Source of the DNA: Myxococcota bacterium
GTDB taxonomy: Bacteria > Myxococcota_A > UBA9160 > UBA6930
Direction of reading: 5' to 3'
Assembly (NCBI GenBank): GCA_965223705.1
Contig: OZ245015.1
Coordinates: 1,472,001 to 1,536,000 of the forward strand
Length of the DNA stretch: 64,000 nucleotides
The number at the start of each line of letters is the position of its first letter. The first letter of the stretch is position 1. Below are positions 46,216 to 63,563 of this stretch, in pieces. The position numbers and the translations under genes were made by a program. The notes below the pieces were generated by a model. That model saw nothing but the letters and a program-made list of their open reading frames with translations. It did no database searches and was not told where the DNA came from.

Positions 46216-47387
46216 TGCGCGCTTCCACCGTTGCGATCGGTGCGGTTTTTCTCGCCTTCCCCGTAGCCGCGTACGGTGAAGGGGACCCGGAAAAGTTTCG
46301 CGTCGGCGCCAGGGTCCGGACCACGGCGGTCTACGACGACAACTTCGAGAACAACGATCAGAAACTCGATGACCTGGGCTACTGGATCGAGCCTCTCATC
46401 GAAGCCGAGTACCGGCGCCGCTCCATCCGTCTCCGCACGGAGCTCGGCGGCGACGTGCGTATCCACCCGCAGCACAGCGACGACAACGACGGGTTCGTCC
46501 ACGCGGTGGGGGAACTCGATTGGAGACTCGGGCGCGGACTGACCTTCAAGTTGTCCGATGCCTTCGTCCCGAGCCCTCTGGAACTCGGTCAGCCGTCGGA
46601 CGATGTCGGAAACCTCGGTCAAACGAACCGCGCGGAAGCGGAGCTCCGCTACGAGCGCGAGCTGGGGCAACGGCGCAGCGTCTTGTTCGGCGTCCGCGCT
46701 TCGCGCTTCGACACCGAAGGATTCGAAGCGACGCTCGATACCGACGGGGACGGCGCGGCCGAACTCGATCGCGATTTTCGCGCGGACTACTGGCAGGCAG
46801 ATACGTACTTGGAACTGCAGCAGCGATTGGGTCGCAAGCACCGGCTGTACGTGCGGGGCGAGTTGCGGGAAAGGCGATTCGACGACTTCGAGGACGCGGA
46901 CTTCGACGAAGTGTTCGGACTGGTCGGCATGAAAGGTCGGTTGGGAAAGCGCATCCGTTGGGGCGCCGCGTTGGGCTACGGGACTCTCAACTACGATCAG
47001 GGCGATCGCGACGGTCGCATGTTGGGCAACGCCAACCTCGAGTACGCGTTTGGCGCCGGCTACACGCTCGACGCGTCCGTCAGCCGTCGGCTGACCAGCG
47101 ACGCGGCGTTCTCCGATCACCGCGAAACGACCTACCGGGCATCGCTCGAGAAGCGGCTCGGCGCTCGCACTCGGGTCGAGCTCGGCAGCTTCTTGACGAG
47201 CTTTCGTAACAGCGTCACCGGAGGCGGAGACAACCGCGTCTTTGGTGTCGATCTCGAGATACGGCGTCAACTCTGGCGCCGTTTCGAAGGCGCCCTCATC
47301 GGACAGCATTTCAAGAACGCCGGCGATCAAGGCGCCGACGACTTCAGGAAGAACCGTGTTTTTGTCGAACTCACTTATCGCTACTAG
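46215..47387 (+). CDS. Outer-membrane beta-barrel of polysaccharide export (EpsX/WzpB-like)
   Basis: Signal peptide, YDDN near N-terminus, alternating beta strands, C-terminal VFVELTYRY; adjacent to an OPX gene. Confidence 0.8.
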   Translation: MRASTVAIGAVFLAFPVAAYGEGDPEKFRVGARVRTTAVYDDNFENNDQKLDDLGYWIEPLIEAEYRRRSIRLRTELGGDVRIHPQHSDDNDGFVHAVGELDWRLGRGLTFKLSDAFVPSPLELGQPSDDVGNLGQTNRAEAELRYERELGQRRSVLFGVRASRFDTEGFEATLDTDGDGAAELDRDFRADYWQADTYLELQQRLGRKHRLYVRGELRERRFDDFEDADFDEVFGLVGMKGRLGKRIRWGAALGYGTLNYDQGDRDGRMLGNANLEYAFGAGYTLDASVSRRLTSDAAFSDHRETTYRASLEKRLGARTRVELGSFLTSFRNSVTGGGDNRVFGVDLEIRRQLWRRFEGALIGQHFKNAGDQGADDFRKNRVFVELTYRY

Positions 47388-48237
47388 CCGCGTTGCGATC
47401 GGCTGCCTCTTGCTCTTCGCGGCAGGGATCGCGGGGGCGACGGACTACCGAATCCGCCCGGGCGATCTACTGGAGATCACCGTCTGGCGAGAGCCCGACC
47501 TGTCGGGCACCCACCGCGTCGGCGCCGACGGCGCTCTGCAGCACGTATTGGTCGGCGCGGTCCCCGTGGAAGGTGCCAGCCTGAGCGAGGCCGGCGCCTT
47601 GATCTCCGAGCGACTGGAGCGCGAATTCCTCCGCGAGGCGCGCGTGGCGATCACGCTCGTCGAATCGACGCATCGGCAGGCATCGGTCCTCGGCGACGTG
47701 CCGGCCCCCGGTCGTTACCCCGTCGACGAAGCGACGCACGTCCTCGATCTGTTGCTCGCCGCCTCGGTTGTTCACGGTGCGGGCGGAACGCTGCTTCGCT
47801 TCGAAGCGGCCCCGGACTCGGGAGCGGTCACGGAACCGACGGAGCGATTGCCCGTCGACGTCGCGGCCCTGCTCCAAGGGCGCTCTTTCGAAGACAACCA
47901 TCGCGTCTTCCCCGGCGACGTTCTCGTCGTGAGCGCCGCACCGGGCGAGGTCAGCGCCGGCCCGCAGCGTCGAGAGCCGGTTCGCGTCGTCGGAGCGGTG
48001 GAGTCGCCCGGGGGATTCGAGCTCGAGCAGGCCAGCACCCTCCTCGACGCCGTGCTCGCGGCGGGCGGACTCGCCGAGTATGCGTCGGGAAACCGGGCAC
48101 GTCTGGTGCGGGGCACGGGTGAGTCGCGCACCGAAACGCGCGTGCGCTTGCGCGATCTTCTGAAAGGGCGAGGCGCCCAAGAGAACCTCGCGCTCGAACC
48201 CGGAGACCTGTTGGTTGTTCCGGAGAGCTTCTTCTAG
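47362..48237 (+). CDS. Polysaccharide export OPX/Wza-family protein (Poly_export + 2 SLBB); start approximate
   Basis: YRIRPGDLLEITVW..DLS...V..DG, VLGDV..PG.Y, VVGAVESPG, LEPGDLLVVPESFF. Confidence 0.88.
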   Translation: MSNSLIATSRVAIGCLLLFAAGIAGATDYRIRPGDLLEITVWREPDLSGTHRVGADGALQHVLVGAVPVEGASLSEAGALISERLEREFLREARVAITLVESTHRQASVLGDVPAPGRYPVDEATHVLDLLLAASVVHGAGGTLLRFEAAPDSGAVTEPTERLPVDVAALLQGRSFEDNHRVFPGDVLVVSAAPGEVSAGPQRREPVRVVGAVESPGGFELEQASTLLDAVLAAGGLAEYASGNRARLVRGTGESRTETRVRLRDLLKGRGAQENLALEPGDLLVVPESFF

Positions 48238-48239
48238 CC

Positions 48240-50072
48240 ATGCTCGGACGCGAAGAGGGGAACGCCGAAGACGCGCGGTTGTCGGATTACGTCGCTTTTT
48301 TGCGGCGCCGGTTCCGCACCGCACTCGGCGTCTGCGCCGGCTTCATGGCGGTCGCGTTTTTCTGGAACGGCAGCCTGCCCGAGGTCTACGAGTCGAGTGC
48401 GCGCGTCGTGATTGGCTCCGCAACCCGCGGGTTCTTTAGCGACACCACCAATCCGATCGAGAGCTACTTGTTCGAGCGTCGCTCTTTCGAAACGCAGCTC
48501 GAGGTCATCGCGAGCGAACCCGTCGCGACCCTCGCGGCGATCGACCTCGGTTGGGTCGCGGAGGATGCGCCCCTCGAGGCGCGGCAACACGCGGCCGGAC
48601 AAGTTCGCGGCGCTCTCTCCGTGCGTCATCTTCGCGACACCCGAATCGCGGTCATCGCGGCGCGCGATTCGAACCCGGCCCGGGCCCGGAACGTGGCAAA
48701 CGCTGTTGCGCGCGCCTACATCGCTTTTTCTCAGCAGGAAGGGCAGGAGGCCCGTTTGCGTTCTGCCGCTTGGTTGACCGAGGAGCTCGACGAGATTCGC
48801 GGTCGATTGCGCACGCGTTCCGAGGAGCTCGTCGCCGCACCGCCAGCGGTGAGCGCCGCACCCGGGCAGGCGGCTCGCGGCCAATCGGAACGGCTCACGA
48901 CGGCGTTGGGCGCGGCGGAGCTCGACTTGGTCGAGTTGCTGCAGCGCTATCGCGAGGGACACCCGCGCGTCGTCGAAGCGCGAGCGCGCGTCGCGCGTCT
49001 GCGCGGAAAGGCCGCGCCGCGCGTGGCGGAAGCGGACCAGGACGCGGCGACGCGCGCGAGACTGCTACAGCGGGACATCGAGCTCGATCATGAGATGTAC
49101 GACGTTCTCCTCAAGAAGCTGAAAGAGATCGACGTATCGGGCTCGATCGGCGAGGCGAATCTCCGAATTCTCGAATCCGCGCGCATGAGCTCCGCACCCA
49201 TCGCGCCGCGGACGACGCGCAACTTGGCCGTCGCTCTTCTGCTCTCGCTTTGCGCCGCGGTCGCCACGGCGTTCTGCATCGACAATCTCGACCGAAGCGT
49301 CGGAACGCCCGAAGAAATCAGACGCTTCTTGGGACTTCCCACCTTGGGCGTCGTCACCCGGCTCGCGCAGCACTCGGGCAGGGCGGGCGCGACCGGCACG
49401 AGCCCCGGCGGCGAGATGTTCCGGACCCTGCGGACGAACTTGCGTTTCAGCCACGTCGATGCCCCGCGTCGGGTCGTTCTCGTGACGAGCGCGGGGCCCG
49501 CGGAGGGCAAGTCGACGGTCATTGCGAACCTCGGTCGGTCGTTGGCAGCGAGCGGGCGCCGCACCTTGTTGATCGATACGGACCTTCGCAAGCCGTCATT
49601 GCATCGCGCCTTCGAGGTCGGACGCACCCCCGGCTTGGTCGATGTCCTGGCGGGCGACGCGTCGGTTACGGACGCCCTTCGCACCACGGAAACGGACGGC
49701 TTGGCACTCTTGACCTGCGGTCCGCGTCCTGCGAACCCGGCCGAACTCATCGAGTCTCGGAAGCTCCAAGAGCTCGTCGCGCAGCTGCGGGAGTCCTTTG
49801 ACTACGTGCTCCTCGACTCGCCGCCTTCGGGCGGACTCATCGATGCGAGCTTGCTGTCGGTACTGGCCGACGGAGTCATCTTCGTCGTCGAACCCCGACG
49901 TTTTGATTCGCGCATCTTGCGCGGCGCCCTGCGTCAGCTCGAGCGGGGCGGAGCGCGCATCTACGGAGCGGTCCTCAACAAGGCGGAGCGCGACGACAAC
50001 GCGTCGGTCTACGGCTACTACGAGTACGGAGAGCCGGCTGAAGTCGTCGCCGCGCCGGTCTCGACGCCGTGA
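48240..50072 (+). CDS. Wzc-like polysaccharide co-polymerase / BY-kinase
   Basis: Two TMs flanking a coiled region; Walker A GPAEGKS, IDTDLRKP, LLDSPP; Tyr cluster VYGYYEY. Confidence 0.92.
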   Translation: MLGREEGNAEDARLSDYVAFLRRRFRTALGVCAGFMAVAFFWNGSLPEVYESSARVVIGSATRGFFSDTTNPIESYLFERRSFETQLEVIASEPVATLAAIDLGWVAEDAPLEARQHAAGQVRGALSVRHLRDTRIAVIAARDSNPARARNVANAVARAYIAFSQQEGQEARLRSAAWLTEELDEIRGRLRTRSEELVAAPPAVSAAPGQAARGQSERLTTALGAAELDLVELLQRYREGHPRVVEARARVARLRGKAAPRVAEADQDAATRARLLQRDIELDHEMYDVLLKKLKEIDVSGSIGEANLRILESARMSSAPIAPRTTRNLAVALLLSLCAAVATAFCIDNLDRSVGTPEEIRRFLGLPTLGVVTRLAQHSGRAGATGTSPGGEMFRTLRTNLRFSHVDAPRRVVLVTSAGPAEGKSTVIANLGRSLAASGRRTLLIDTDLRKPSLHRAFEVGRTPGLVDVLAGDASVTDALRTTETDGLALLTCGPRPANPAELIESRKLQELVAQLRESFDYVLLDSPPSGGLIDASLLSVLADGVIFVVEPRRFDSRILRGALRQLERGGARIYGAVLNKAERDDNASVYGYYEYGEPAEVVAAPVSTP

Positions 50073-51868
50073 GACACCTCGCGCTGCCGCTCGCTCTGTT
50101 GGCTTTGGTCGCGACGGCCTTGGTGGGCTATGGCGGTACCACGCCCTGGGCCGCGGCTCTGGCACACCTCCTGATTGCACTGACGGTTCTCGTCTTCGCG
50201 GTTGCTACACGCCGAACCGGCTCGATCAGCGCCTACGTGCTGGTGGGGTCATGGATCGGGCTCGGGGCGATGTCGCTCTCCATCGGAGACTCGGTCGACC
50301 CCGGTCTCGATGCCTTGGGCGCCTTGGTGGCTTCTGCGAGCGTGTTCTTGCTCGCCGAACGCGTCCGCGGTCGCCGCGCGGAGCGCTGGCTTGCGACTGG
50401 AATCGCGAGCCTCGCCGCCGTCGTCTCGGTGTGGGCGATCGTGCGGGTGCCGGCGGACGGCGATGCCCTCGGGCCTTTCGGAAACGCGAACCACCTGGCG
50501 TCCTGGATGCTGCTGCCGGGAGCCCTCGCGCTCGCCGCGTTTCTCGACTCCGACATCCGGAGGCGGGGCCGCCGAGAGTCGGGTTTCCTTTGGTTTCTCT
50601 TGTGCGGCGCAGCCGCTGCCGCCGTCGCGGTGACCGGTTCTCTCGGCGGGGCGATCGCGGGGGCGGTGGCCGCGCTGGTTGCGGTGGGAGGTCACCGGTT
50701 CGTCCGGAACGCGGAGATCCGAAAGGCCGCCGGACAACTCCCCGTGGCGAGGCTTCCGCGGATCGCCTCGCTTTCGCTCCTCGCAGCCTACGTGGCGCTC
50801 GCCGGAGCTCTGACCGTCGGTTCGTCACTCTTCCCCGACGGCATCTCCGTAAAATCGGTGGGAAGCGAGTCGTCCGTGGGGATGCGTTGGGCGGTTTACG
50901 GAGCGGCTTCGCGAGCCGGTCTCGAGCACGCGCCGCTCGGCTCCGGCCTGGGAAGCTTCGCGGAAGCCTTCGCCGCCGAACGGCCGCGAGGACTCCCCTA
51001 CGGCGTTCGGTTCGCGCACAACGAGCCGCTTCACGGATGGGTGGAGCTCGGAGTGCCCTTCCTGCTTCTCGCGCTCGTGTCTCTCACCATCATGGCGAGG
51101 CGTCTTCCCGCGGCGCTCGCGCTCGCTCCCTCGCGCTTTCGCATCGGAGCGATGGCGGGGCTCGCCGGCCTCGCGGTGCACAGTTTGTTCGACTTCCCGC
51201 TCCACGTGCCGGCAATCGCTTGCGTGGCGGCGATCGGCTTGGGTTTTGCCTGGCGTCTCCCCCGAGAAGGAACCGGCCTGCGGCCGCAGTGGTCGAGTGC
51301 TGCGCTGGCGAGTCTGGGCGTGCTCGGGATCGGTTTGTCCGGCACCCAGCTCGTCGCGAGCGCAAACGAGGAGCTGGCCGTTCGGGCGGAAGCGGCCGGC
51401 GACTTTCAGGCCGCGCTCTCCCACGTCGAACGCGGCCTGCGCGCGCGCCCCTGGCGGCCCTCGCTGCGGCAACTGCGCGCCGACAACCTGGAATACGCGG
51501 CCGTCTTCGATGGCGCAAAACTCGGAGACTCGTCCGTTGCCGACGCGCGCGCAGACGCCATCGCGGTAGCGCCGAGGCGCGCGAATTTCCGCCTGCAGTT
51601 CGCTCGGGCTCTCGCGGAGGCAGGTGACGCGGACCGCGCGCGCGAAGAAATCGCGGCGGCGAAGCGCCTCGACCCCGCATCTCCGGCGCCACTGCTCGCC
51701 GCCGCGAATCTCGCTTTTCGCAGCGGAGACCTGTCCCAGGCGGAAGAGCAGATCCGGGCGGCGATCGCCCTCCACCCGGGCTTGGCTTCGGAACTCGCAC
51801 GTCACGCTCCGGTATTGTGGGGACGCGTGCACGCGGTGTCCCTGGCCGAACCGGGGACGAAGAAATGA
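50069..51868 (+). CDS. O-antigen ligase/Wzy_C family protein with C-terminal TPR repeats
   Basis: GPFGNANH, GSGLGSF, AHNEPL...ELG, HSLFDFPLH; TPR-like tail. Confidence 0.85.
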   Translation: MRHLALPLALLALVATALVGYGGTTPWAAALAHLLIALTVLVFAVATRRTGSISAYVLVGSWIGLGAMSLSIGDSVDPGLDALGALVASASVFLLAERVRGRRAERWLATGIASLAAVVSVWAIVRVPADGDALGPFGNANHLASWMLLPGALALAAFLDSDIRRRGRRESGFLWFLLCGAAAAAVAVTGSLGGAIAGAVAALVAVGGHRFVRNAEIRKAAGQLPVARLPRIASLSLLAAYVALAGALTVGSSLFPDGISVKSVGSESSVGMRWAVYGAASRAGLEHAPLGSGLGSFAEAFAAERPRGLPYGVRFAHNEPLHGWVELGVPFLLLALVSLTIMARRLPAALALAPSRFRIGAMAGLAGLAVHSLFDFPLHVPAIACVAAIGLGFAWRLPREGTGLRPQWSSAALASLGVLGIGLSGTQLVASANEELAVRAEAAGDFQAALSHVERGLRARPWRPSLRQLRADNLEYAAVFDGAKLGDSSVADARADAIAVAPRRANFRLQFARALAEAGDADRAREEIAAAKRLDPASPAPLLAAANLAFRSGDLSQAEEQIRAAIALHPGLASELARHAPVLWGRVHAVSLAEPGTKK

Positions 51869-53145
51869 TCCGGCCGAACGCGAACACGCAGTGGGTCCTG
51901 GGGGCGGCGTGCGGCGCAGCACTCGCAGGCGTGTTGGCCCTCGCCCCGCTCGGGCTTTCGGTCGCCCTCGCGGCCTTCTCTCTGCTGTTCGTTCCCTCGC
52001 TACTCCTGCTCGCGCGCGAGCCCTTCGAGCGACGGGTTTTCTGCGCGGCCGTGGGCGCACGTGCCCTCTTGGCGGTCGTGATCTACTACAGCGGAGTTTC
52101 GGACTTCTTTGCCCTCGATCCGGTGCGGTACGAGCGTCTCGGCGCCGAGCTCGCTGCCTACTGGTCGGGCTCGCAGAGCGCGCCGCCGCAAATCTACGGT
52201 CGCGTCGGCTACTACGCGTGGAATGCCGCCATCTATTTCGTGTTTGGCCACGAGCCCCTCGCGCCGACACTCATCAACGCCGTGATCGGCGGATGGTGCG
52301 TGATCTTCGCGAGCCGTGTCGCCGGAGTGCTCTCGGGAGAACGGGCGGCTCGCTACACGGCGTTGGTCTGCGCGTTCTGGCCATCGCTCATGCTGTGGTC
52401 GAGTCTCAATCTCAAAGACGCGCAGGCGATCTTTCTGATTCTGGCGGCGATCCTGGCCGTCCAAAAGCTCTCCGCCCGGCCCTTGGCAGCCGGGGCCTCG
52501 GCCTTTGCAGCGATCGCACTACTCAGTCAGATCCGCGGCTACATGGCGCTGGTCTTGCTCCTCTCGATGTCGCTCGGCGTTCTGATACCGCGACTCGCGC
52601 GGGTGTCTCTCCTTGTGGTGCCCGCCGCGGTCGTCGCGCTCGCGTTGCTGCCGAGCTTGGAGCTCTTTCAGGAGCTGGCTCAGGAAGTCACGCTCGAGCA
52701 GCTTTCGAGAACGCGCGGGAAACTCGCGGCCGGCGCGTCGGCGTATTTCGCGGACGCCGATCTGTCGACTCCGCGCGCGGCGCTGTCGTTCTTGCCGATC
52801 GGACTCACGTACTTCTTTCTAGCCCCGATGCCGTGGCATTTGCTCAGCGGGCGTCAGTTGATGGTCCTCCCCGAAATGCTCGCGTGGTACGGACTGTTGA
52901 TTTGGATTGCGCGGGGCGCCATTTCGCTGCTGCGCACGCGATCCAGGGAGACGCTGCCGGTTCTCCTGTTCGTCGCCACGGCGTCGGTCTCTTACGCGAT
53001 GGTGGAGGGGAACCTCGGCACGGTGTACCGACATCGCGCGCAGGTCGTGGTTCCGTTGCTGGTCTTCGCGGCCCACGCGCTCGCCGAAGCAAAGGAAGAA
53101 CGTCGACGCCCGCTGCCCCTGGCGCCGGCGGTGAGTCCCGCATGA
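51865..53145 (+). CDS. Multi-pass membrane protein, putative GT-C glycosyltransferase or Wzy-type polymerase
   Basis: Roughly 10 TMs; D...Y after the early TMs, WPS...WSSLNLKD, NLGTVYRHR. Confidence 0.7.
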   Translation: MIRPNANTQWVLGAACGAALAGVLALAPLGLSVALAAFSLLFVPSLLLLAREPFERRVFCAAVGARALLAVVIYYSGVSDFFALDPVRYERLGAELAAYWSGSQSAPPQIYGRVGYYAWNAAIYFVFGHEPLAPTLINAVIGGWCVIFASRVAGVLSGERAARYTALVCAFWPSLMLWSSLNLKDAQAIFLILAAILAVQKLSARPLAAGASAFAAIALLSQIRGYMALVLLLSMSLGVLIPRLARVSLLVVPAAVVALALLPSLELFQELAQEVTLEQLSRTRGKLAAGASAYFADADLSTPRAALSFLPIGLTYFFLAPMPWHLLSGRQLMVLPEMLAWYGLLIWIARGAISLLRTRSRETLPVLLFVATASVSYAMVEGNLGTVYRHRAQVVVPLLVFAAHALAEAKEERRRPLPLAPAVSPA

Positions 53146-54332
53146 CGGTGGGTTGGCTCGTGGAGAACGCGGCTCCGTTTGTGTACGAGGAAGTCGCCGC
53201 CCTGAGGAAGCGGGGAATCTCGGTTTCCGTCGCGTCGGTGTTCCGGCCTTTCGGCGCACAAGATTGGACCGAAGCGTTCGACGGGCCGGTGTTCTATCCC
53301 GCACGCGGTCGGCGCGGTTGGCTCCTTCGTTCGATCCAAAACGCGGCGCGTCGACCCCTTGCTTTTGCGAGGGTGATGAACCGCGCACGGCTCGAGCGCG
53401 CGCCGTACCGGTTGGTCGCGCTCGCCGCCGAGTTGGCCGAGCGGGCGAAGGTCGAGGAATGGACCCATGTCCACGGAACGTTCGCGACGTTTCCGGCCTG
53501 GGTCGCTTGGGCGGTCGCCGAGATGCGGTCGATTCCCTTCAGCATGACGGGCCACGCGTACGATGTGCAGGAGCCGCGACCCTGGTTGCCGAGAGTGATC
53601 GACGACTGCGCGTTCGCTCGGGCGATTTCGACGGAAACCGCCGGCCGGATGAAGCGACTGGCCGCGAGCGGAAACGGCCGCTCGAAGATTCGGGTCGCAC
53701 ATTTAGGGGTCGACACCGAGCGTTTCGCGCCGAGTGGCGAGCGCCGCCGACGCGGTGCGCCGCGCATTCTTTGCGTCGCGAATCACGTCCCGGAAAAAGG
53801 GATCGAGCACCTTCTCGATGCCGCCCGCCAACTGGCCGAGGAGGGCACCGAAGTGCGCGTCGAGCTCGTCGGCGAGGGCCCGCTCACGGACTCGCTCCGC
53901 GCACGCGCCTCGCGTCTCGGGTTGACGCCGCGCTCTGTGGTCTTTCGCGGGCGTCGCGATCGAGAGCAGGTACGCCGAGCGCTCGCTCGCGCGACGATTT
54001 TTGCTTTGCCGTGCAGCGCGGGTGGGGGCGTCGATCACGACGGGTTGCCGGTGGCGATTCTGGAAGCGATGGCCTGCGGTCTCCCGCTGGTCACGACGCC
54101 GGTGGGCGGTATCCCCGACGCGATCGAAGACGGCGAGAACGGGCGTCTCGTCCCGCCGGACGACCCGGCCGCTCTCGCGCGCACGTTGTCGGAACTGCTG
54201 ACGGATCCCGCACAGCGGCGTCGGTTGGGAGCGAGCGCCCGCCGATCCGCGGAGGAGCGATTCTCCGCCAGCGCGGCGGCGCGGCGGCTCGATGTTCTTC
54301 TGTCGGGCACCGTGTCGGGAGCCCGCGCATGA
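53142..54332 (+). CDS. Glycosyltransferase family 4
   Basis: HAYD, EKGI, DGLPVAILEAMACG.P. Confidence 0.9.
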   Translation: MTVGWLVENAAPFVYEEVAALRKRGISVSVASVFRPFGAQDWTEAFDGPVFYPARGRRGWLLRSIQNAARRPLAFARVMNRARLERAPYRLVALAAELAERAKVEEWTHVHGTFATFPAWVAWAVAEMRSIPFSMTGHAYDVQEPRPWLPRVIDDCAFARAISTETAGRMKRLAASGNGRSKIRVAHLGVDTERFAPSGERRRRGAPRILCVANHVPEKGIEHLLDAARQLAEEGTEVRVELVGEGPLTDSLRARASRLGLTPRSVVFRGRRDREQVRRALARATIFALPCSAGGGVDHDGLPVAILEAMACGLPLVTTPVGGIPDAIEDGENGRLVPPDDPAALARTLSELLTDPAQRRRLGASARRSAEERFSASAAARRLDVLLSGTVSGARA

Positions 54333-55639
54333 GGGCACCTCGCGTCTTGTTGGCGGCCTACTACTTTCCGCCCGTCGCGGGGGGCGGGGTCACGCGCACC
54401 CTCGCTTTGATCGATTCCCTGCGTCGGCACGGCGCCCACCCGTCGGTAGTGACCGTCGACGACGCGGCTTGGACGCGCGACCCGACCCTGTGCGCGGGAA
54501 TCTCCGAGGTGCCCGTCGTTCGCGTCCCGAATCCCGATTGGGGTCGCGTCCGTCGCCGTGGAACGGTGTCGGCTGGACGACCCGGAAGAGGGCGTCTGCG
54601 CAAAGTGCTCGTCCCCGATCTCCACGTCGGGTGGAGTGTGCTCGCCGCTGCGGTCGTCGCCGGGATGGCACGCGCCAACGCCTTCGACGTCGTCTACACC
54701 ACGGCGCCGCCGTACTCCGCACACGTCATCGGGTACGTCGCGCGTCGTTTGGGTAAGCGTTGGGTCGCGGATTTCCGCGACGCTTGGATCGATGCGCCGG
54801 ACCGACAAGGGCTCGGCCCGCGGCGACTCGCTGTTGAGAAACGGCTCGAAGCCGCCGTGTTTCGGCACGCCGATCGGACGATCTTCGCGTCGGCAGGTGC
54901 TCGGCGCCGCGCGATCGCGCGCCATCCGAACCTCGCGAACCGCAGCGAGGTAACGCTCACGGGCTTTGACCCCCGTCGCTACGTAGGCGCGGCCGATCCG
55001 GTTCCGACGCGCGCCGAACGCCGCTACCGGTTGGTGCACGCCGGCAACGTCGGACTCGATGCGAAGGCCTCGAGGGCGACCGCATTCCTCGACGTCTTGG
55101 CGACGTGGCGGGAGCGGCATCCCGAAGTAGAGACGTCCGTCGACGTGACGTTTCTCGCAGCGGAGGCGTGGTTCCGCGGTGAAATCAACCGTCGGGAGCT
55201 CCAGCGGTTCGTACGCATCGAACCCGCCTGCTCGCGCGGAGACCTCGCAGCGAGGCTCGAGCAGGCGCATCGATGTTTGCACATCGCGCCTCCGGGACCG
55301 CGTGGTGCCGACCCGATTCCGGGAAAGCTTTTCGACGCCCTGGGCTCCCGCCGTCGCTTGTTGTCCTTCGCCGACGGGGGCGCGCTGTCGGAGCTCTTGC
55401 AGCAATACGACTGGGGCGAGGCTTTCGCCCCAAGCGACACCGAGTCGCTGATCCACTTCCTCGAATCGGAACGCCGGGGGGTGCTCGCGGGGACTTACGT
55501 TCCCGTCCTGACCGACGCGGCTCGCTCGTCGTGCACGAACGAAGTGGCTCTCGAGGGCCTCGTTCGGGCGATTCTCCGAGAAGAGCGCGAGGAACGATCC
55601 CGGCAAACGGCGTTCGCGCCTTGGGGAGCGACGCCATGA
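54329..55639 (+). CDS. Glycosyltransferase (GT4-like)
   Basis: AYYFPPVAGGGV.R, TAPPYSAH, ADFRDAW, PGKLFDAL. Confidence 0.85.
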   Translation: MRAPRVLLAAYYFPPVAGGGVTRTLALIDSLRRHGAHPSVVTVDDAAWTRDPTLCAGISEVPVVRVPNPDWGRVRRRGTVSAGRPGRGRLRKVLVPDLHVGWSVLAAAVVAGMARANAFDVVYTTAPPYSAHVIGYVARRLGKRWVADFRDAWIDAPDRQGLGPRRLAVEKRLEAAVFRHADRTIFASAGARRRAIARHPNLANRSEVTLTGFDPRRYVGAADPVPTRAERRYRLVHAGNVGLDAKASRATAFLDVLATWRERHPEVETSVDVTFLAAEAWFRGEINRRELQRFVRIEPACSRGDLAARLEQAHRCLHIAPPGPRGADPIPGKLFDALGSRRRLLSFADGGALSELLQQYDWGEAFAPSDTESLIHFLESERRGVLAGTYVPVLTDAARSSCTNEVALEGLVRAILREEREERSRQTAFAPWGATP

Positions 55640-56517
55640 GAGTGTCTGTCAGTCTCGTGACGCACCGCAGTCGATCGCATATCGACGCTTGCCTCGCTGC
55701 ACTCCGTACGCAGCGCGAAGTCGCAGAGATTCTCGTGGTGGACAGCGGCAGCGACGATGGTACGACGCAACACTTGCGGAGAACCCATCGCGATGTGTGG
55801 GTCGACGCGTCCGCCGAGAACGTCGGTTACGCGGCTGGACACAACCGCAACTACCGGCGCGCCACCGGGGACGCGTTCCTCGCGCTGAACCCGGACGTCG
55901 TCATGGATCTGAACTGTCTCGAACGACTCTGCGGCGCTCTGGCCGATCGAGCCGATATCGGCTCGGTCGGGCCCAAACTACTGCGCGCTCGTACGAACAG
56001 TCTGGTCGATTCCGCGGGGATCGAACGCGATGTCTTGCGCGGAAAGTTCCGCGACCGCGGTGCGGGCGAGGCATCGAGTCGATATCGCCAACGCGAAGAA
56101 GTGTTCGGGATCTGCGGGGCCGCCGCGCTCTACCGGAGGGAGGCGCTCGAAGAGGTTTCCGGGAAAGAGCGCGCTCCGTTCGCCGAATCATTTTTCATGT
56201 ACTACGAGGATGTCGACCTGGCGTGGCGTCTTCGCCGGGCTGGGTGGAAGAACGTTTTCGTACCGACCGCGCGCGCACACCACCGACGCGGGGGCGCAGG
56301 GGCGGCGTCGGCGTTTACGGAATACCACCTCGTGCGAAACCGCCTCTGGGTTTCCGTGCGAAATGCGAGCTTGGCCGAATTCGCGTGCGAAGCGCCGGGT
56401 CTTCTCTTGTTCGAAGCCGCGAAGTGCGTGCAGGCCACGCGCCGAGGCCATCTGCGTCGTGCGCTGAGGGATCAGTGGCGCGGCATGGCTCGGGCGTGGT
56501 CGGAGAGGGCGCCGTGA
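55636..56517 (+). CDS. Glycosyltransferase family 2
   Basis: VVDSGSDDGT, NVGYAAGHN, LNPD, FFMYYEDVDLAWR. Confidence 0.92.
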   Translation: MRVSVSLVTHRSRSHIDACLAALRTQREVAEILVVDSGSDDGTTQHLRRTHRDVWVDASAENVGYAAGHNRNYRRATGDAFLALNPDVVMDLNCLERLCGALADRADIGSVGPKLLRARTNSLVDSAGIERDVLRGKFRDRGAGEASSRYRQREEVFGICGAAALYRREALEEVSGKERAPFAESFFMYYEDVDLAWRLRRAGWKNVFVPTARAHHRRGGAGAASAFTEYHLVRNRLWVSVRNASLAEFACEAPGLLLFEAAKCVQATRRGHLRRALRDQWRGMARAWSERAP

Positions 56518-57692
56518 AGATCGCGCACGTCGCCAACACCGATTACTTCTGCGGTTTCCTGCTGCGGGATCAGTTGAGGAAGCTGCGCGACTCCGGGCAC
56601 GAGGTCCACGCCGTGAGCGGCCCCGGCCCGCTTCTCGATGCCCTCGGTGCCGACGGGATTCGCGTGCACACCGTCGAGAACGCGCGCCGGATCGATCCCG
56701 GGCGAGACCTGCGAACGCTCTTCTCCTACGTGCGTTTGTTCCGTCGAGAGGCGTTTGATCTGGTCCACACCCACAACCCGAAGGTGAACGTCTTGGCGAG
56801 TGCCGCCGCCCGCATCGCGGGAGTGCCGCGAGTGGTGTCTACGCTTCACGGTCTCTACTCCCACGAGGGGCAGCGGGCAGCCGTGCGACGCCTCTGGCGG
56901 GGATTCGAGTCGGTGGGCGCACGGTTCGCAGATCTCGTCCTGTGTCAAAGCGCCGAAGACGTCCGCACGGCGCGTTGGCGCCGCATCGTTCCGGACGAGA
57001 GCCTGCGACGGTTGGGCAACGGAGTCGATCTTCGACGATTCGACGCGCGCCGCTTTCGCTCGGAGGACAGCGCCGCGCTCCGCCGCCGCTTCGGCATCGC
57101 GGCGGACGAACGGGTCGTGGGTTTTGTCGGTCGTCTCGTGCGCGAAAAGGGCGTAGAGGATCTACTCGCCGCTTGCCGTCGTCTGCCTCGCACGCGTGTG
57201 TTGTTGGTCGGACCGGACGAGCGCGGAGAAAAAAGCGACGCGTTGGATCCCCGCGCGTTGCGAGCGGCTCCCGGCGTCTCGTGGCTCGGCGTGCGAAACG
57301 ACATGCCGTCGGTGTTCGCGACGTTCGACGCCTTTGTCTTGCCGTCCTACCGGGAGGGGTTCCCCCGCTCGCTGGTCGAGAGCGCAGCGATGGGAATCCC
57401 CGCGATTGCGACGGACATTCGCGGTTGCCGCGAAGTGGTCGTGCCGGGACAGACCGGTTGGCTCGTTCCGGCGCGGGCGCCCCACGTCTTGCGCAGCGCG
57501 CTCGAGGGGCTGCTGCGCGATGCTTCGCGTCGCCGACGATTCGGCGAAGCGGCCCGTCGCCGAGCGGAAGCGAACTTCGACGAGCACGCCGTTTTCGAGC
57601 GGGTCGCGCGGGCTTACGCGGAGCTCCCGCTCCGCCGTCCTGCTGCTGCGCCGCGCGTCCCTGCGCGTGCAGAGAGCCCGGCAACCCGCTGA
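56514..57692 (+). CDS. Glycosyltransferase family 4
   Basis: VHTHNPK, GNGVDL, GRLVREKG, LPSYREGFPRSLVESAAMG. Confidence 0.93.
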   Translation: MKIAHVANTDYFCGFLLRDQLRKLRDSGHEVHAVSGPGPLLDALGADGIRVHTVENARRIDPGRDLRTLFSYVRLFRREAFDLVHTHNPKVNVLASAAARIAGVPRVVSTLHGLYSHEGQRAAVRRLWRGFESVGARFADLVLCQSAEDVRTARWRRIVPDESLRRLGNGVDLRRFDARRFRSEDSAALRRRFGIAADERVVGFVGRLVREKGVEDLLAACRRLPRTRVLLVGPDERGEKSDALDPRALRAAPGVSWLGVRNDMPSVFATFDAFVLPSYREGFPRSLVESAAMGIPAIATDIRGCREVVVPGQTGWLVPARAPHVLRSALEGLLRDASRRRRFGEAARRRAEANFDEHAVFERVARAYAELPLRRPAAAPRVPARAESPATR

Positions 57693-57786: not shown

Positions 57787-58995
57787 GTGCGCGCGGAAGG
57801 AGGGGATTTCGTGTTCGTGATTCCCAGGCAATCCCCGCCGGCGAGACGCTGGCTAGCGCACCTCGTTCGTGCCTCGGCGGGTGCGATTCGCCCCGGCGAC
57901 CTGTTCGACGACGTGCTCCCGTTCGACACGGCCGAAGCCGTTTCTCTGGCGCGACGTCACCGGGTCGGTCCGCTGATCCACCGCGGGTTGGCCGATGGGA
58001 GAATCGCCGATTCGCTGCCCGACGCGTTCGCTCGGGCTTGTCGCGAACTGTATTTCGCGACGCTCCGCAAAAACATCGTCGCGCTCGAGACCGCCGGGCC
58101 GGTTCTCTCGCACTTGGCGGCCGCCGGCATCGCCAGCGCACCCCTCAAGGGTTGGGCGCTGCTCACCGGCGCCGAGCCGGTCTACGCCGACGCGGGCATG
58201 CGGCCGATGGACGACCTCGATCTCATCGTTCCGCGCGCGGAAGTCGACCGCGCGACGCGCATCATCGAAGCCCACGACTTCCGAGCCATCGCGCCTCGCG
58301 GTCCTCGGCTCGCTGCGGGGCACGAGATCGCGTTTCACCGGCAAGTCGCAGGCGTCGATCTTTTCGTCGAACTCCACTTTGCATGGGCCGGTAGCGAAAG
58401 CTTGATGCGGCAGTACGCGATGGGCGGGGAGACGTTCCTCGAGGCCTTCTGCTCCGATTGCGGACCGGGAGAACCCCGGCAACCGACACGGATCGGACAC
58501 CTTCTGTTCGTGGCGGTGCACGCGGCGCGACACGCGTTTCGCCGCTGGCTCTGGTTGCTCGACCTCCACCGGATTGTCGACGGGGTGGCTGGTGAGCCGG
58601 CACTGGATTGGTCCGAGGTCGTTCGCACGGCGAGCGAGCACCGGTTGCGGCGTCCGCTGTACGCGGGCCTCGCGGCGGCGCGCGAGCTCCTTCGGACGCC
58701 GGTGCCGAAGGAAGTGCTCGCAGAGCTCGCGCCGGGACCGGTGCGACGCCGCCTTCTGCACAGCAGCTTGCGGCCGAGTGCGGCGCCGAGCGAAGCCCAG
58801 CGTCGCGATCGCGTGGCGAAGCTTCTCTTGGGGGAGTCGTGGTGGGATGTGGCGCGAACCGCGGCCTGGGCGTCGAACCCGGGTCGCTCCTGGTACGAGA
58901 AACGCGGGGAGCGCTCGGATCTCGCTCAGCGGATCGCCAACCCGGTACGAATGCTTCGCGGAGCGCCTCGGCCGAATCTGGAGCCGCGCAAGTGA
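57787..58995 (+). CDS. Nucleotidyltransferase family protein (NTP_transf_5 type)
   Basis: PLKG.AL...Y.D.GMRPMDDLDLIV, VELH, HAARH, WLLDL. Confidence 0.85.
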   Translation: MRAEGGDFVFVIPRQSPPARRWLAHLVRASAGAIRPGDLFDDVLPFDTAEAVSLARRHRVGPLIHRGLADGRIADSLPDAFARACRELYFATLRKNIVALETAGPVLSHLAAAGIASAPLKGWALLTGAEPVYADAGMRPMDDLDLIVPRAEVDRATRIIEAHDFRAIAPRGPRLAAGHEIAFHRQVAGVDLFVELHFAWAGSESLMRQYAMGGETFLEAFCSDCGPGEPRQPTRIGHLLFVAVHAARHAFRRWLWLLDLHRIVDGVAGEPALDWSEVVRTASEHRLRRPLYAGLAAARELLRTPVPKEVLAELAPGPVRRRLLHSSLRPSAAPSEAQRRDRVAKLLLGESWWDVARTAAWASNPGRSWYEKRGERSDLAQRIANPVRMLRGAPRPNLEPRK

Positions 58996-59273
58996 CCGAG
59001 AGCGCTTGCGCGCGAAGGGTCGAGGGGGTGATCTCTCGGACGATCGCCGGAGAGACGGTTCTCGTTCCGATTCACAGTCGCGCGGAAGAGCTCGGGCTCT
59101 TCACACTCAATTCCGTCGCCAGTTTTATCTGGGAACGGATGGACGGGCGCCCTCTTCGCGACATCGCATCCGAGCTGGCGGCCACCTACGACGTCAGCAT
59201 CGAAGAAGCGACGACGGACCTCACGCACTTTGCACGAGAACTCGTTGCCGCCCGCTGCGCCGAGGTGTGTTGA
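58992..59273 (+). CDS. PqqD-family RiPP recognition element (RRE)
   Basis: 93 aa; RTIAGETVLVP..LFTLNSVASFIWERMDG...IASEL...YDV..EEA..DL..F...L; overlaps both neighbours. Confidence 0.92.
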   Translation: MTESACARRVEGVISRTIAGETVLVPIHSRAEELGLFTLNSVASFIWERMDGRPLRDIASELAATYDVSIEEATTDLTHFARELVAARCAEVC

Positions 59274-60433
59274 TGGTTGCGCCCGAAGTGAACCTCCGAA
59301 GCGTCCGAAGCGATGCCCTCACGCGCGACTACAAGCGGCGGATCGTCGAGGATCGCGTTCCCGTCTCGGCGTCCATCGAGCTCACGTACCGTTGCAACCT
59401 GCACTGCGGCCACTGCTACTGCCCAAAGGGAGAGCGTTCACAGGAACTATCGACGCAGGAGATCTCGGATCTCATCGACGAGATGGCCGACATGGGGACG
59501 CTCTTTCTGCTGATGACGGGCGGGGACCCGCTGTTGCGGAAGGATTTCCCCGAGCTTTATCGCCACGCCAAGGAACGCGGGCTTCTCGTCACGGTCTTCA
59601 CAAATGGCACGTTGATCGATGAAGACATCGCCGACCTGTTTCGCGAACTCCCTCCGTACCTGATCGAAATCTCGCTCTATGGGCTCACTCGCAAGACCTA
59701 TGAGACCGTCGTCGCCGTTCGCGGTTCGTACGATCGCTGTCTCGCCGGGATCACGCGAGTTCTTCGCGATGGACACCGGCTCGCGCTGAAATGCCCGGCG
59801 ACGTCCGACAATGCCCACGAAATTCCCGAGCTCGCGCGTTTTGCCAAGGATCTGGGAGTCGACTTCCGCTACGACCCAGTGATCCTCGCGACGATGGAGG
59901 GCAAGACGCACACACACGCCATGCGACTCACGGCGGAGCAGGTCGTCGCCCTCGAAGCGGCCGACGTCGAGAAGGACCGGGCGTGGACGAGCTACATGGA
60001 GGAAGCCCCTGCGGTTCCCGAGAACGATCGGCTGTTCTCGTGTGGCGCCGGGAAGAACTCGTTCCACATCGATCCCTACGGAAACGTCCAAGTGTGTCTG
60101 ATGGTGAAAAATTTCCCCCGCAACGTGCGAGAACGCTCGCTTCGCGAGATCTACTACCAGGAATTCCCCGAGATCCTCGCGATCAAACGCAAGCCGGAAA
60201 CGAAATGCGGCTCGTGTAGCCACCGGGCGACGTGCAACAACTGTCCGGGGATGGCGCTCTGGGAAACCCAGACCAACGACGGGCACGTCGAGTTCGCTTG
60301 CCAGCTATCGCAAGTTCGGGCGGAAACGTACGGCCCGCCAGAAGCTTCGAGCGGCGCGTGCGGTTCCGGTGGTTGCGGTAGCGGCGGCTGTGGAGCCGCG
60401 GAATCGCTGCTTCAGATCGGGGGCATCCGATGA
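59273..60433 (+). CDS. Radical SAM/SPASM-domain peptide maturase
   Basis: ELTYRCNLHCGHC (CxxxCxxC), TGGDPLLR, TNG; SPASM CGAG...IDPYG.V..C...CxxCx5CxxC-x18-C. Confidence 0.93.
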   Translation: MVAPEVNLRSVRSDALTRDYKRRIVEDRVPVSASIELTYRCNLHCGHCYCPKGERSQELSTQEISDLIDEMADMGTLFLLMTGGDPLLRKDFPELYRHAKERGLLVTVFTNGTLIDEDIADLFRELPPYLIEISLYGLTRKTYETVVAVRGSYDRCLAGITRVLRDGHRLALKCPATSDNAHEIPELARFAKDLGVDFRYDPVILATMEGKTHTHAMRLTAEQVVALEAADVEKDRAWTSYMEEAPAVPENDRLFSCGAGKNSFHIDPYGNVQVCLMVKNFPRNVRERSLREIYYQEFPEILAIKRKPETKCGSCSHRATCNNCPGMALWETQTNDGHVEFACQLSQVRAETYGPPEASSGACGSGGCGSGGCGAAESLLQIGGIR

Positions 60434-60615
60434 CCGAGGAGAGCGGACGGAAACCCTACGAGGCGCCGGAGATTCGCAGAGTTGAACTCGACGTGATGGC
60501 GAGTTTCCCGGACAACTGCAAGATGGATGTCGGGACCGGGGGGTTTGGGGGTGCCGCGGGTTCATGCCAGCAGTCGAGCCTACCGACGGTGATGTGCATG
60601 AACATCGGCTCGTAG
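60430..60615 (+). CDS. Putative RiPP precursor peptide (61 aa)
   Basis: Leader KPYEAPEI (YxxPxL-type RRE motif); Gly-rich core with Cys30/46/56 ending GS; ATGA overlap with the rSAM stop. Confidence 0.85.
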   Translation: MTEESGRKPYEAPEIRRVELDVMASFPDNCKMDVGTGGFGGAAGSCQQSSLPTVMCMNIGS

Positions 60616-60620
60616 CCGAC

Positions 60621-61505
60621 GTGCGCGTTCTCGAGGTCGCGGGTGTGCGCATCGCGGTCGAAGTACCCCGGGAGTTGCCTTGGACGTGGCCGGACGGTCC
60701 GCTGACGCGATTCGCCGGCGCGGACGCAGGCCGCGCCGACGTGCGCGTCGCCGTTCGAATCGGAAAGCCCGTCGTCAGTGCCAGGGCGCTGTCGTACGAC
60801 TCGGGCGGCGGGATCTTTGACGTCGTCGCAAGTCGCGACACTCTGGAGATCGTTCTGCGCATCCGCGGCGAGATCCAGCGCGTGGCGCGATTCGACCGCG
60901 ACTTTCGCGATGGCGAAGTCACGCTCGCCCCGGATTCCTTCTACGCGACCGAGAACTACTACCCCTTGGCCTACCCCCTCGACGAATGGATCTTCTTCCA
61001 CCGCATCTTGCGGGAGAGCGGGTTGCTGGTTCACGCCTGCGCGGCGGAGCGGTCCGGGCGCGCGTTGTTGTACTGCGGTCGCTCCGGCGCCGGGAAGAGC
61101 ACCACCGCGAAGTTGCTGCGGCGCTACGCCGACGCTTCCGTGCTCTCAGACGATCGCATCGCGCTGCGGGTCGAAAAAGACGGAATCTGGGCGCACGGCA
61201 CGCCCTGGCACGGCGAAGCGCCGCTCTCCGAACCGCGCGCCGCGAAGCTCGTCGCGATTCACTGGATCGAGCACGCCGCACGCCTCGTACACTCGCCGAT
61301 GCGGGGGGCCCGTGCTGCGGTGGCTCTGCTGGGCAACGCTTTTCTCCCCGCCTACGACGACAAGGGCGCCGCCGCCGGTCTTGCAGTCGCAGAGGAAATC
61401 GTCGCGCGGGTACCCCTCGCGAAGCTCGGCTTCCCGAAAGATCGCCGCATGGTCGATCACGCACAGTCCCTCTGGTCGAACGCCGGTGGGAGCGCGCTGG
61501 CGTGA
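60621..61505 (+). CDS. HPr kinase/PEPCK-fold P-loop kinase (RiPP-associated)
   Basis: LLVHACA, GRSGAGKSTT, LSDDRIAL, GTPWHG. Confidence 0.85.
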   Translation: MRVLEVAGVRIAVEVPRELPWTWPDGPLTRFAGADAGRADVRVAVRIGKPVVSARALSYDSGGGIFDVVASRDTLEIVLRIRGEIQRVARFDRDFRDGEVTLAPDSFYATENYYPLAYPLDEWIFFHRILRESGLLVHACAAERSGRALLYCGRSGAGKSTTAKLLRRYADASVLSDDRIALRVEKDGIWAHGTPWHGEAPLSEPRAAKLVAIHWIEHAARLVHSPMRGARAAVALLGNAFLPAYDDKGAAAGLAVAEEIVARVPLAKLGFPKDRRMVDHAQSLWSNAGGSALA

Positions 61506-61948
61506 GCGACGCTCCGCCGGCTTTTGCTGCACACGAGCTCGCCTTGACCGAGGCTCTTCGAAAAGGAGCCGTGTGGATCCGACCGTGCGGTGTGTCGATG
61601 CGCCCCACACTCGTCGAAGGCGATTCTGTCGAGCTCGCGCTCTTACCGGCGCGCTGGGGCGCGATCGCTCTGGTGTCCCACCGAGGAAGGTTGTGGCTCC
61701 ACCGGTTGGTATGGCGCCGCGGCGGGCGGTGGTTGTTGTGGGGCGACGCGCGAGCGCGTCCCGAGGGCTGGGTGGAAGAACGGCAGATCCTCGCGATCGC
61801 CGTGGCGCGCCGCCGCGATGACGGACGGGCGCTCGACCTCGTGCGCGGTCCGGCGCGCCTTCTGGGGCTCTGCGCCGCAGCCGTCCGACGCCCTTTGCGC
61901 CGTCTACGCGCCCACGCGCAGCGAGCCACGCCGCTCCGCGCGCCCTAG
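61502..61948 (+). CDS. S24/S26-family peptidase, probable leader peptidase
   Basis: GVSMRPTL..GD, LHRLV, WGD; no N-terminal TM; GTGA overlap with the kinase. Confidence 0.8.
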   Translation: MSDAPPAFAAHELALTEALRKGAVWIRPCGVSMRPTLVEGDSVELALLPARWGAIALVSHRGRLWLHRLVWRRGGRWLLWGDARARPEGWVEERQILAIAVARRRDDGRALDLVRGPARLLGLCAAAVRRPLRRLRAHAQRATPLRAP

Positions 61949-62743
61949 AGCGATCCGCAGGAGCGCGGAGGACAGGCACCATCCCAGCGCAGCCATCCAG
62001 GTGAGATGCAAGAGGGGCTCTGCGAGCTGACGCAGCGACGCGCCTGCAAACAACGCATCGCGGAGGGCGTCGATTCCGATGTAAAGGGGCAGCCACGAAG
62101 CGAGGACCGCGGCGGGGGCGGGGAGGAGCTCCGCCGGAAAATAGACGCCGCCGAGGAGCGTCATCAGCGCGAGCGACCCGCTGACGAACAAGTGCGCCCG
62201 TCGAGTGGCGAGCCACACCGCCGCTCCGGCGATGCCCACCGGAAGCATCGCGATTAGCGTGAGCGCGGCACACACCGAAGCGCCGATCCAATCGGGAGAG
62301 AATCCGGAGCTGCCGCGAAGCAACCAAAGCCAGGCGGCGGCGCCGTAGGCTGCCATTTGGATCGAAGCGAGGAGAAGTGCCGCCGTCGCGGCGCCGGCGA
62401 GAATCCCGGCGACGGGAGCCCCCGCTGCGATCGCGATTTCGAGCGTTCCCTCAGACGCGTCGCGCGCGAAGCCGTTCGCCACCGAACCGGCGACCACGGC
62501 GACCGTTTGGAACAGGATCAACCCCGATACGACGAATGCGAAGTAGTCGCCGCCGACGAGCTCGTCCGGCGCGCCGTCGACGAGACGGGCGATGAAAAAA
62601 TAGACGACCAGCCCGAGCAAACCGGACGCCAGCCCCGCGGCGGCAACCCAGCCGTAGGATCGCTGAATCGACAAGTCGCGTCGGATCACGCCCAGTGCCG
62701 TCGCGCATCCGGCGCGCCAATGCGGGCGCACGGCCGCGGTCAC
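61904..62743 (-). CDS. ABC-2 type transporter permease
   Basis: About 6 TMs; RRDL..RSY, EGTLE, LGGVYFP..LLP, LP....IDALR. Confidence 0.87.
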   Translation of the reverse strand: MTAAVRPHWRAGCATALGVIRRDLSIQRSYGWVAAAGLASGLLGLVVYFFIARLVDGAPDELVGGDYFAFVVSGLILFQTVAVVAGSVANGFARDASEGTLEIAIAAGAPVAGILAGAATAALLLASIQMAAYGAAAWLWLLRGSSGFSPDWIGASVCAALTLIAMLPVGIAGAAVWLATRRAHLFVSGSLALMTLLGGVYFPAELLPAPAAVLASWLPLYIGIDALRDALFAGASLRQLAEPLLHLTWMAALGWCLSSALLRIALGRAERRGSLRVGA

Positions 62744-63402
62744 GCGGCGCGTTCCAAAGCCGATCGCGTCAGCCGACCTTCACGCAGGGTGAGCCACCCC
62801 GAGCAGTGTTCGGCGACGTGCCGCGGTTGGTGCGAAACCCAAAGTGCCGTCCGGCCCAACGCGCGAAGTTCCTCGGTGAGGCCGCGGTGGATGTCGTCCG
62901 TGCTGTCGGGATCGACCGCTGAGGTGGGCTCGTCGAGAAGTGCGAGTGTCGCAGGGGAGGTCAGGATTCGGACGAGGCCTGCGCGTTGCAGCATGCCCTG
63001 TGAGCATGCGTCGGCGCGAACGTCGAGGTCGCTCGCAATGCCGAAGCGCTCACTCAGCCGATCGATCTCCCGATCGATCGCGTGGGAGAAAGCGCCGGAC
63101 CAGCTCCCCGCGTAGCGCAGGTTCGCGCGCAGGCTGAGTCTGCGCTGAAAGCGGCCGCCGGCCTCTCCCGACCAAGCGATGGCGCCGCGCCGGCGAGCCG
63201 CGACCGCGCCGAGCGCGCCGACGCGTACGGTCCCGCGATCCGGGCGGAGCAGGCCGGCGCACAGGCGCAGCAGGGTGCTTTTGCCCGCTGCATTTCTTCC
63301 GCCGATCCCGACGATTCCCCCTCTGGGGACTTCGAGGCTCAACCCATCGAGGACGGCGTGCCCGTTGAATGCCTTCCGCACGTCGTGCAGTTCGAGAAAC
63401 AC
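62740..63402 (-). CDS. ABC transporter ATP-binding protein
   Basis: GRNAAGKST, CSQGMLQR signature variant, LLDEPT, SH; GTG at 63402 after GGAGG. Confidence 0.88.
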   Translation of the reverse strand: MFLELHDVRKAFNGHAVLDGLSLEVPRGGIVGIGGRNAAGKSTLLRLCAGLLRPDRGTVRVGALGAVAARRRGAIAWSGEAGGRFQRRLSLRANLRYAGSWSGAFSHAIDREIDRLSERFGIASDLDVRADACSQGMLQRAGLVRILTSPATLALLDEPTSAVDPDSTDDIHRGLTEELRALGRTALWVSHQPRHVAEHCSGWLTLREGRLTRSALERAA

Positions 63403-63563
63403 GCCTCCAATTTCGGCGCCGTACAGGAAAACCTTGAGTCCCGAGATTTCGAGAAAACCCGCTGCAGACGCGAACTTCACGCCGCAATCACCGCTTCGTG
63501 ATACATTGGACAAGCTGTATCGGACCCGGTGTGCTTGTTCTGAGCGAGCTCGAGGGGAGCGGG

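Follow-up and report, generated by a model that had tools for sequence, protein, structure and literature searches.

The question raised by this locus is what a very short gene makes, and what the enzymes encoded on either side of it would do to its product. The window, by which we mean the whole stretch of 64,000 nucleotides analysed, comes from a Myxococcota bacterium; the gene occupies positions 60430-60615 of its plus strand. In the explanation preferred here, it would encode the precursor of an uncharacterised ribosomal peptide, whose three cysteines would be cross-linked, whose last serine would be phosphorylated and whose leader would be cut off. Six genes follow one another in the order nucleotidyltransferase, RRE, radical SAM/SPASM enzyme, precursor, HprK-like kinase and S26-type peptidase, and neighbors overlap or nearly touch. 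These genes and their surroundings are as follows.

47242-57692, plus strand: upstream exopolysaccharide locus, same strand as the operon (polysaccharide export protein, Wzc-like kinase, Wzy_C/TPR protein, GT4 and GT2 glycosyltransferases)
57811-58995, plus strand: NTP_transf_5 nucleotidyltransferase (PF14907 match over the cut-off; start approximate)
58992-59273, plus strand: discrete PqqD/RRE protein, 93 aa (weak model and structure matches)
59273-60433, plus strand: radical SAM/SPASM enzyme, 386 aa (Cys motifs, profile, structure comparison)
60430-60615, plus strand: precursor peptide, 61 aa (translation, homologue matches, alignment, pN/pS, codon counts)
60621-61505, plus strand: HprK-like peptide kinase, about 294 aa (His-Lys-Asp-Asp motif; start approximate)
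61502-61948, plus strand: S24/S26 (signal peptidase I-like) peptidase, 148 aa (PF00717 matches of orthologs, catalytic residues)
61904-62743, minus strand: ABC-2-type permease, convergent (conserved together with the cassette)
62740-63513, minus strand: ABC ATPase, partner of the permease (profile match; start uncertain)

The precursor is translationally coupled within the six-gene operon. Its ATG shares the letters ATGA with the stop codon of the radical SAM gene, and the kinase gene starts 5 nt downstream of the precursor stop. The convergent ABC pair and then khpA lie downstream of the operon, and the ABC-2-type permease is a possible exporter. The same full order of genes is found at 6 genome loci. 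In metagenomes, 21 of the 22 loci have the radical SAM gene upstream of the precursor, the kinase gene downstream, or both; some of these loci are duplicates. A promoter and terminator scan of the locus gave signals at the level of shuffled sequence, and no close relative of the radical SAM enzyme was found in viral contigs and plasmids. The polysaccharide locus is headed by two uncharacterised, exported-looking genes (window 44881-47387), one of which matches the PEP-CTERM outer-membrane model TIGR03016 below its cut-off.

Translation of the gene gives exactly the 61-residue peptide quoted in the sequence-only reading, with Cys30, Cys46, Cys56 and a terminal Ser61. The leader contains Y10xxP13xI15 followed by L20-D21-V22-M23-A24-S25, so that the YxxPxL motif claimed previously stands in its YxxP part but ends in Ile rather than Leu. 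The core contains the three cysteines, a GGFGG stretch, S49-S50 and the terminal G60-S61. Database proteins matching the precursor number 38, of which 33 were aligned after five partial or aberrant ones had been excluded. There are 24 invariant columns in this alignment, including Y10, P13, C30, K31, C46, C56, G60 and S61, and the logo expected from the sequence-only reading (Y..P, CK, C, C, GS) was recovered with every predicted residue invariant, 33/33. Ser25 is kept in 32 of the 33 sequences and Ser49 and Ser50 in all 33; L20 and V22 are invariant, and F26, F39 and G38-G41 vary little or not at all.

The gene is under purifying selection, with pN/pS between 0.00 and 0.33 in 21 pairs drawn from seven gene copies. 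Among 25 distinct copies the Ser61 codon is TCN in 17 and AGC in 8, so the serine is kept across both codon families. Contigs from two samples of one study, possibly the source of the present DNA, show 0 differences. The motif alone proves nothing, because a loose pattern of YxxP, two Cys and a terminal Ser or Thr fits 71 frames in the organism's own genome; the conservation, unlike the motif, is beyond chance. The frame is thus a selected protein-coding gene for a conserved precursor of the RiPP type. The earlier claim of such a precursor with an RRE-type YxxP leader holds, as the leader is conserved and the gene adjoins a discrete PqqD/RRE gene.

Of 225 genomes of the class searched with the precursor profile, 10 contain the gene, each in one copy; they are spread over four families, and the named relatives are Myxococcota metagenome-assembled genomes, one of them labelled UBA9160. 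A profile search of 1.84 billion representatives returned six matches, namely five short peptides and one repeat protein; two of the five peptides have diverged but retain the leader, CK and the Ser at the end. The repeat protein (P0042) and a 17-residue Gly-rich match (L063) were treated as spurious, and an inversion within the precursor frame at L061 is probably an assembly artefact. The family is absent from Pfam and NCBIfam, where no precursor model fits, the ESM Atlas offers unnamed clusters only, and no paralog was found in the organism's own genome.

The 93-residue protein encoded two genes upstream would bind the Y10xxP13xI15 segment of the leader, and this is very probably so. The protein weakly matches the ScmD, PqqD and lasso B1 models as well as the TbiB1, PqqD and TfuB1 structures, and YxxP is the determinant in the LppB and PbaB1 crystal structures (PMC13381572).

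The chemistry of the radical SAM enzyme is harder to read. The enzyme has C41, C45 and C48 and seven SPASM cysteines (257, 275, 312, 315, 321, 324 and 343). All seven are present in the 72 homologs aligned, out of 120 listed, and an eighth conserved SPASM cysteine is absent. Their spacing is that of CteB (PMC10177961), with a three-Cys auxiliary cluster I and a four-Cys cluster II. With seven SPASM cysteines and no eighth in the enzyme, auxiliary cluster I may carry an open iron site, or a ligand other than Cys may occupy it. A substrate cysteine would bind the open iron, and up to three thioethers between Cys and carbon would form. That the enzyme does form such links appears somewhat probable. 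The top PDB match, both by sequence and by fold, is the sactisynthase SkfB, and the three invariant precursor cysteines are an odd number. The kind of linkage, alpha as opposed to beta/gamma, and the acceptor residues are not predictable from sequence.

The cysteine pattern is not diagnostic of thioether chemistry, because the cyclopropane synthase TigE also has seven SPASM cysteines (PMC10878394), and because PqqE and SuiB score almost as high as SkfB, all of them at about 20% identity. The fold search did not separate the chemistries. Thus the earlier proposal that the cysteines are thioether donors remains plausible, but the enzyme lacks a feature that would be diagnostic. Cyclopropyl synthase identity (TigE/TvgB), which the I-G-S end of the precursor might recall, was rejected, as the GYW motif occurs in none of the 72 homologs. 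Formylglycine chemistry, for which CxPxR is the motif, was rejected likewise, the motif being absent from the peptide.

PqqE and SuiB form C-C bonds. The enzyme could accordingly make no thioethers at all, but C-C links, epimerisation or oxidation at F26, F39, the Gly run or I59, with the cysteines forming a disulfide or binding a metal. The closeness of PqqE and SuiB to SkfB in the searches is in keeping with this, as is the fact that the best NCBIfam model for the enzyme is that of mycofactocin MftC, albeit far under the cut-off. The near-invariance of F26, F39 and G38-G41 points the same way, and so does the occurrence of exactly two cysteines in 25 of 37 precursors from distant loci. Yet three cysteines cannot all pair, the GYW motif is missing from 72/72 homologs, and what the wider family shares is the cysteines and not an aromatic residue. 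This alternative is on the whole unlikely, and cross-linking through thioethers is retained as the preferred reading.

The C-terminus of the radical SAM enzyme (window 60355-60433) is a disordered tail of CGSGGC repeats ending in LLQIGG. Of 44 orthologs, 38 have a Cys-repeat tail and 41 finish in an LLQIGG-like sequence; among 73 distant homologs, only two carry a Cys-pair tail. The tail resembles the Cys/Gly core and I-G-S end of the precursor, and could be a metal site or a substrate mimic. At two further loci (L071 and L072), distant homologs of about 30% identity lie directly behind a methyltransferase-like frame, with no kinase adjoining.

The kinase has H138, K159, D177 and D178, invariant in 19/19 orthologs and spaced as in BsfK (PMC10368454). 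His-Lys-Asp-Asp is the motif of the lasso kinases (PMC9266682); a PDB sequence search with the kinase returned P-loop look-alikes only. The sequence-only reading had it that PadeK-type kinases phosphorylate the C-terminal Ser. This is true of PadeK, ThcoK, SyanK and PsmK (PMC9266682 and PMC6993621), but LppK (PMC13381572) and BsfK (PMC10368454) phosphorylate Ser3 of the core.

The comparative evidence nevertheless favors Ser61 as the target. A kinase profile was searched in 401 genomes of the phylum, 135 of which matched, and 60 of about 140 places were fetched and joined to two earlier loci. The kinase keeps both His and Lys in 43 loci, 38 of which have a radical SAM gene. For 37 of the 43 loci a candidate precursor was chosen by eye, from a list of pattern matches in which Cys and a C-terminal Ser were both optional. 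A motif of the [FL]E type is found at Y+11 in 34 of the 37, and 36 have at least two cysteines, the first of them at Y+18 to Y+20 in 34. The C-terminal residue is Ser in 21, Thr in 4 and another in 12, against a background of 7% Ser and 11% Thr; a binomial P for terminal Ser overstates the case, because one kinase clade supplies 11 of the 21.

In a tree of 37 kinase domains, from which 19 relics, described below, and seven other sequences were dropped as not matching the P-loop pattern, the window kinase pairs with that of locus L090 (support 99/94). The order at L090, RRE, radical SAM, precursor and kinase, is the same as in the window, and in the 55-residue L090 precursor no hydroxyl residue (Ser, Thr or Tyr) follows the leader Tyr except the Ser at the end. 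The window kinase would put one or more phosphates on Ser61, and this is fairly probable.

Another kinase clade (L106, L112, L129, L133 and L134; support 100/99) has precursors that mostly lack a terminal Ser and carry a Ser just after a leader Leu (LQSC, LSSG, LFSG), which is likely to represent a second kinase specificity. Genome G009, which also bears an ortholog, has a second, unrelated cassette at L073:7981-11200, with a kinase, an RRE, a radical SAM enzyme, a short two-Cys precursor ending in Ser, and an S26 peptidase fused to NTP_transf_5.

The dependence of the kinase on the rest of the cassette is apparent from genomes that lack it. In 19 genomes of the same order, khpA is flanked by a full-length kinase homolog, and neither a radical SAM nor an RRE gene lies closer than about 6 kb. 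These are drafts, 83-97% complete, and being kin they may reflect few loss events. At a threshold of 1e-30, 14 of the 19 have no radical SAM match, and the other five have distant matches only, between 1e-38 and 1e-57 compared with 1e-163 for an ortholog. The kinase keeps His or Lys in 0/19 of these loci, versus both in 43/43 loci of the cassette type. Since the catalytic residues decay where the radical SAM and RRE genes are gone, kinase activity appears to be tied to the presence of the cassette. The relic loci are L077-L089 and L091-L096, and L095 also keeps an S26 gene. Retention of the relic kinase suggests a non-catalytic role of its N-terminal domain.

The same decay, where precursor and radical SAM gene are missing, bears on the suggestion that the gene makes a small metal-binding or regulatory protein which stays unmodified, and that the enzymes act elsewhere, for example on exopolysaccharide. 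Very high conservation of the whole core and the position in a polysaccharide locus would suit such a protein, but an RRE, a YxxP leader and a leader peptidase are all present, and it is very unlikely. The peptide is taken further here as a substrate of its neighbors.

The 148-residue protein encoded last in the operon belongs to a family in which 12 of 15 members match PF00717, the window's own copy being without a match; the family profile weakly matches SEC11 and LexA. S32, H67 and D82 are invariant in 15/15. At the position of the catalytic LppS D93, by alignment by eye, the window copy has E88, where 13/13 covered orthologs have Asp. The E88 codon is at window 61763-61765, and its sequence is confirmed by the contigs. 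The protein thus looks like a leader peptidase with Ser, His and an acid at the catalytic positions of LppS. It would remove the leader after V22 or after S25, and that it does so is likely. The boundary directly before Cys30, as drawn in the sequence-only reading, is not established. The calculated monoisotopic mass is 6440.907 for the full-length precursor; for the unmodified core it is 3855.616 with cleavage after V22, 3566.507 after S25 and 3093.316 after N29. The register L20-D21-V22/M23-A24-S25 echoes the F-E-T/x-x-S of the linear polyphosphorylated peptides (LPPs), whereas a Tyr at -16, its position in LppA, would call for cleavage after S25.

The first of these cuts leads to another account of the same pathway, in which the kinase works in the LPP fashion. 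Cleavage between V22 and M23 makes Ser25 the Ser3 of the core, and Ser61 is kept for some other reason. The L-D-V-x-x-S of the window matches the F-E-T-x-x-S motif, L20 and V22 are invariant and Ser25 is conserved in 32/33, and the peptidase is of the kind known from the characterised LPP system, where LppK, like BsfK, uses Ser3. On the other hand, among the 34 distant precursors with the [FL]E-type motif only five have Ser or Thr at this place and 24 have Leu; the precursor of the L090 sister kinase has no Ser there; and the Tyr would fall at -13, compared with -16 in LppA. Phosphorylation of Ser25 in place of Ser61 is therefore improbable, and Ser61 remains the preferred site.

The nucleotidyltransferase at the head of the operon carries an MDDLD motif in 12 of 13 ortholog matches, the thirteenth being truncated. 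A single-sequence search picked up NTP_transf_5 at just 4 of the 43 distant kinase loci. The protein would lead to a sugar on the phosphate, as PsmN does. This step is proposed because PsmN is needed for the hexose on the pseudomycoidin phosphate (PMC6993621); in the LPP heterologous-host test LppN had no effect (PMC13381572). Addition of a sugar is accordingly put forward tentatively. The genome contains a second NTP_transf_5 gene (L075, from G000:C1:4508559 onward), followed by a frame that is PqqD-like by eye.

The nearest characterised system is the LPP pathway of Paenibacillus alginolyticus (LppA/K/B/S/D/N), as described in PMC13381572. It was missing from the sequence-only reading, which also lacked the Ser3 specificity of LppK and BsfK and left out the S26-type leader peptidase and the nucleotidyltransferase. 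Four tailoring proteins, the RRE, kinase, peptidase and NTP transferase, are common to the two systems, as are the YxxP leader and the setting in a capsule locus. The leader peptidase is SpI-like in both, with Ser, His and Asp as catalytic residues and a helix at the N-terminus, the window copy having E88 in place of D93.

The differences are equally clear. The LPP product is linear and made without a cyclising enzyme ('radical SAM' occurs 0 times in the main text of PMC13381572), whereas the window has a radical SAM/SPASM gene coupled to the precursor, and putatively cyclisation. The LPP core is variable, the LppA studied has no Cys, and the target is the core Ser3, which is polyphosphorylated; the core in the window is a conserved one, with three Cys and a C-terminal Ser. 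The LPP exporter is MsbA-like, in contrast to the two-gene ABC-2-type system on the opposite strand here, and LPPs occur mainly in Bacillota. Of the LPP leader consensus, YxxPxVLxHQxIxFETxxS, the window has only YxxP and the L-D-V-x-x-S echo, three residues shorter and without HQ. By its leader, transporter type and added enzyme the window system falls outside the LPPs. The supplement of PMC13381572 includes four Myxococcota peptidase rows, at least two of which have no assigned precursor.

Phosphorylated lasso peptides (paeninodin with PadeK, ThcoK, SyanK, pseudomycoidin with PsmK-PsmN, and BsfK of Bradymonas) share with the window the His-Lys-Asp-Asp kinase acting on a precursor, a conserved terminal Ser (except in Bsf) and a nucleotidyltransferase, which in the lasso systems is tied to hexose on the phosphate. 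The YxxP leader, discrete RRE, kinase and nucleotidyltransferase, as in paeninodin-type clusters, would suit a lasso precursor matured by a B2 peptidase and a cyclase encoded elsewhere. Lasso systems, however, have a B2 cysteine peptidase and a macrolactam cyclase where the window has an S26 peptidase and a radical SAM enzyme. PF13471 has no match in the genome, which is 95% complete; of six PF00733 matches, even the nearest lies at a distance of over 0.5 Mb; and the core is long and Cys-rich. Lasso identity was rejected on the missing B2 peptidase and the lack of a nearby cyclase, and has next to no likelihood left.

The maturases of sacti- and ranthipeptides (SkfB, CteB, PapB and Tte1186) resemble the window in the radical SAM/SPASM enzyme, the CteB spacing and the Cys-rich precursor. 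The window differs in its roughly 20% identity, in having the RRE as a separate gene and no CX3D acceptor pattern, and in the additional kinase, S26 peptidase and NTP transferase. Weak TIGRFAM/NCBIfam matches link the kinase to ScmC and HprK_rel_A/B, the RRE to ScmD, and the radical SAM enzyme to ScmE/F and GeoRSP. Membership in the SynChlorMet group was rejected, since the scores are far below the cut-offs (ScmC 25.9 against 125, ScmD 25.7 against 100, ScmE 75.5 against 400) and no precursor model fits.

About 300 lasso-type RREs beside radical SAM genes were noted, but left undescribed, in RRE-Finder (PMC7470986), and PMC13692751 concerns a different system. The literature covered, with most subscription papers outside it, contains no paper on a cassette of radical SAM enzyme, HprK-type kinase and S26 peptidase. 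The pathway is thus a combination of known parts for which the literature found has no experimental description.

Taken as a whole, thioether cross-links, a phosphate on Ser61 and removal of the leader, all by the neighboring enzymes, are the best explanation of the locus, with about an even chance of being right. The product, 36-39 residues long, would be an exported, cross-linked phospho- or phosphoglycopeptide linked to the biology of capsule or biofilm. The weakest step is this biological role, which most likely concerns the capsule or biofilm.

At this locus a peptide-tailoring kit first characterised in 2026, that of LPP, is combined with a radical SAM enzyme from a clade not yet studied, and with so short and invariant a substrate the chemistry lends itself to direct tests in E. 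coli. The cassette is carried by uncultured myxobacteria-like bacteria, in an operon beside capsule genes. The lineage provides a natural comparison, as whole-cassette genomes can be set against sister genomes that have only a decayed kinase at the same site. What LPP and paeninodin-type peptides do biologically in capsule loci is, by the account of the authors of PMC13381572, still to be answered. More speculatively, and with little probability, the window peptide may be the founding member of a widespread RiPP class of radical-SAM-cross-linked phosphopeptides, in which a sugar-bearing terminal phosphoserine would tether a rigid peptide to the capsular polysaccharide made by the adjacent genes, or would prime that polysaccharide. 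If true, this would give the capsule-linked kinase/NTP-transferase cassettes their missing function.
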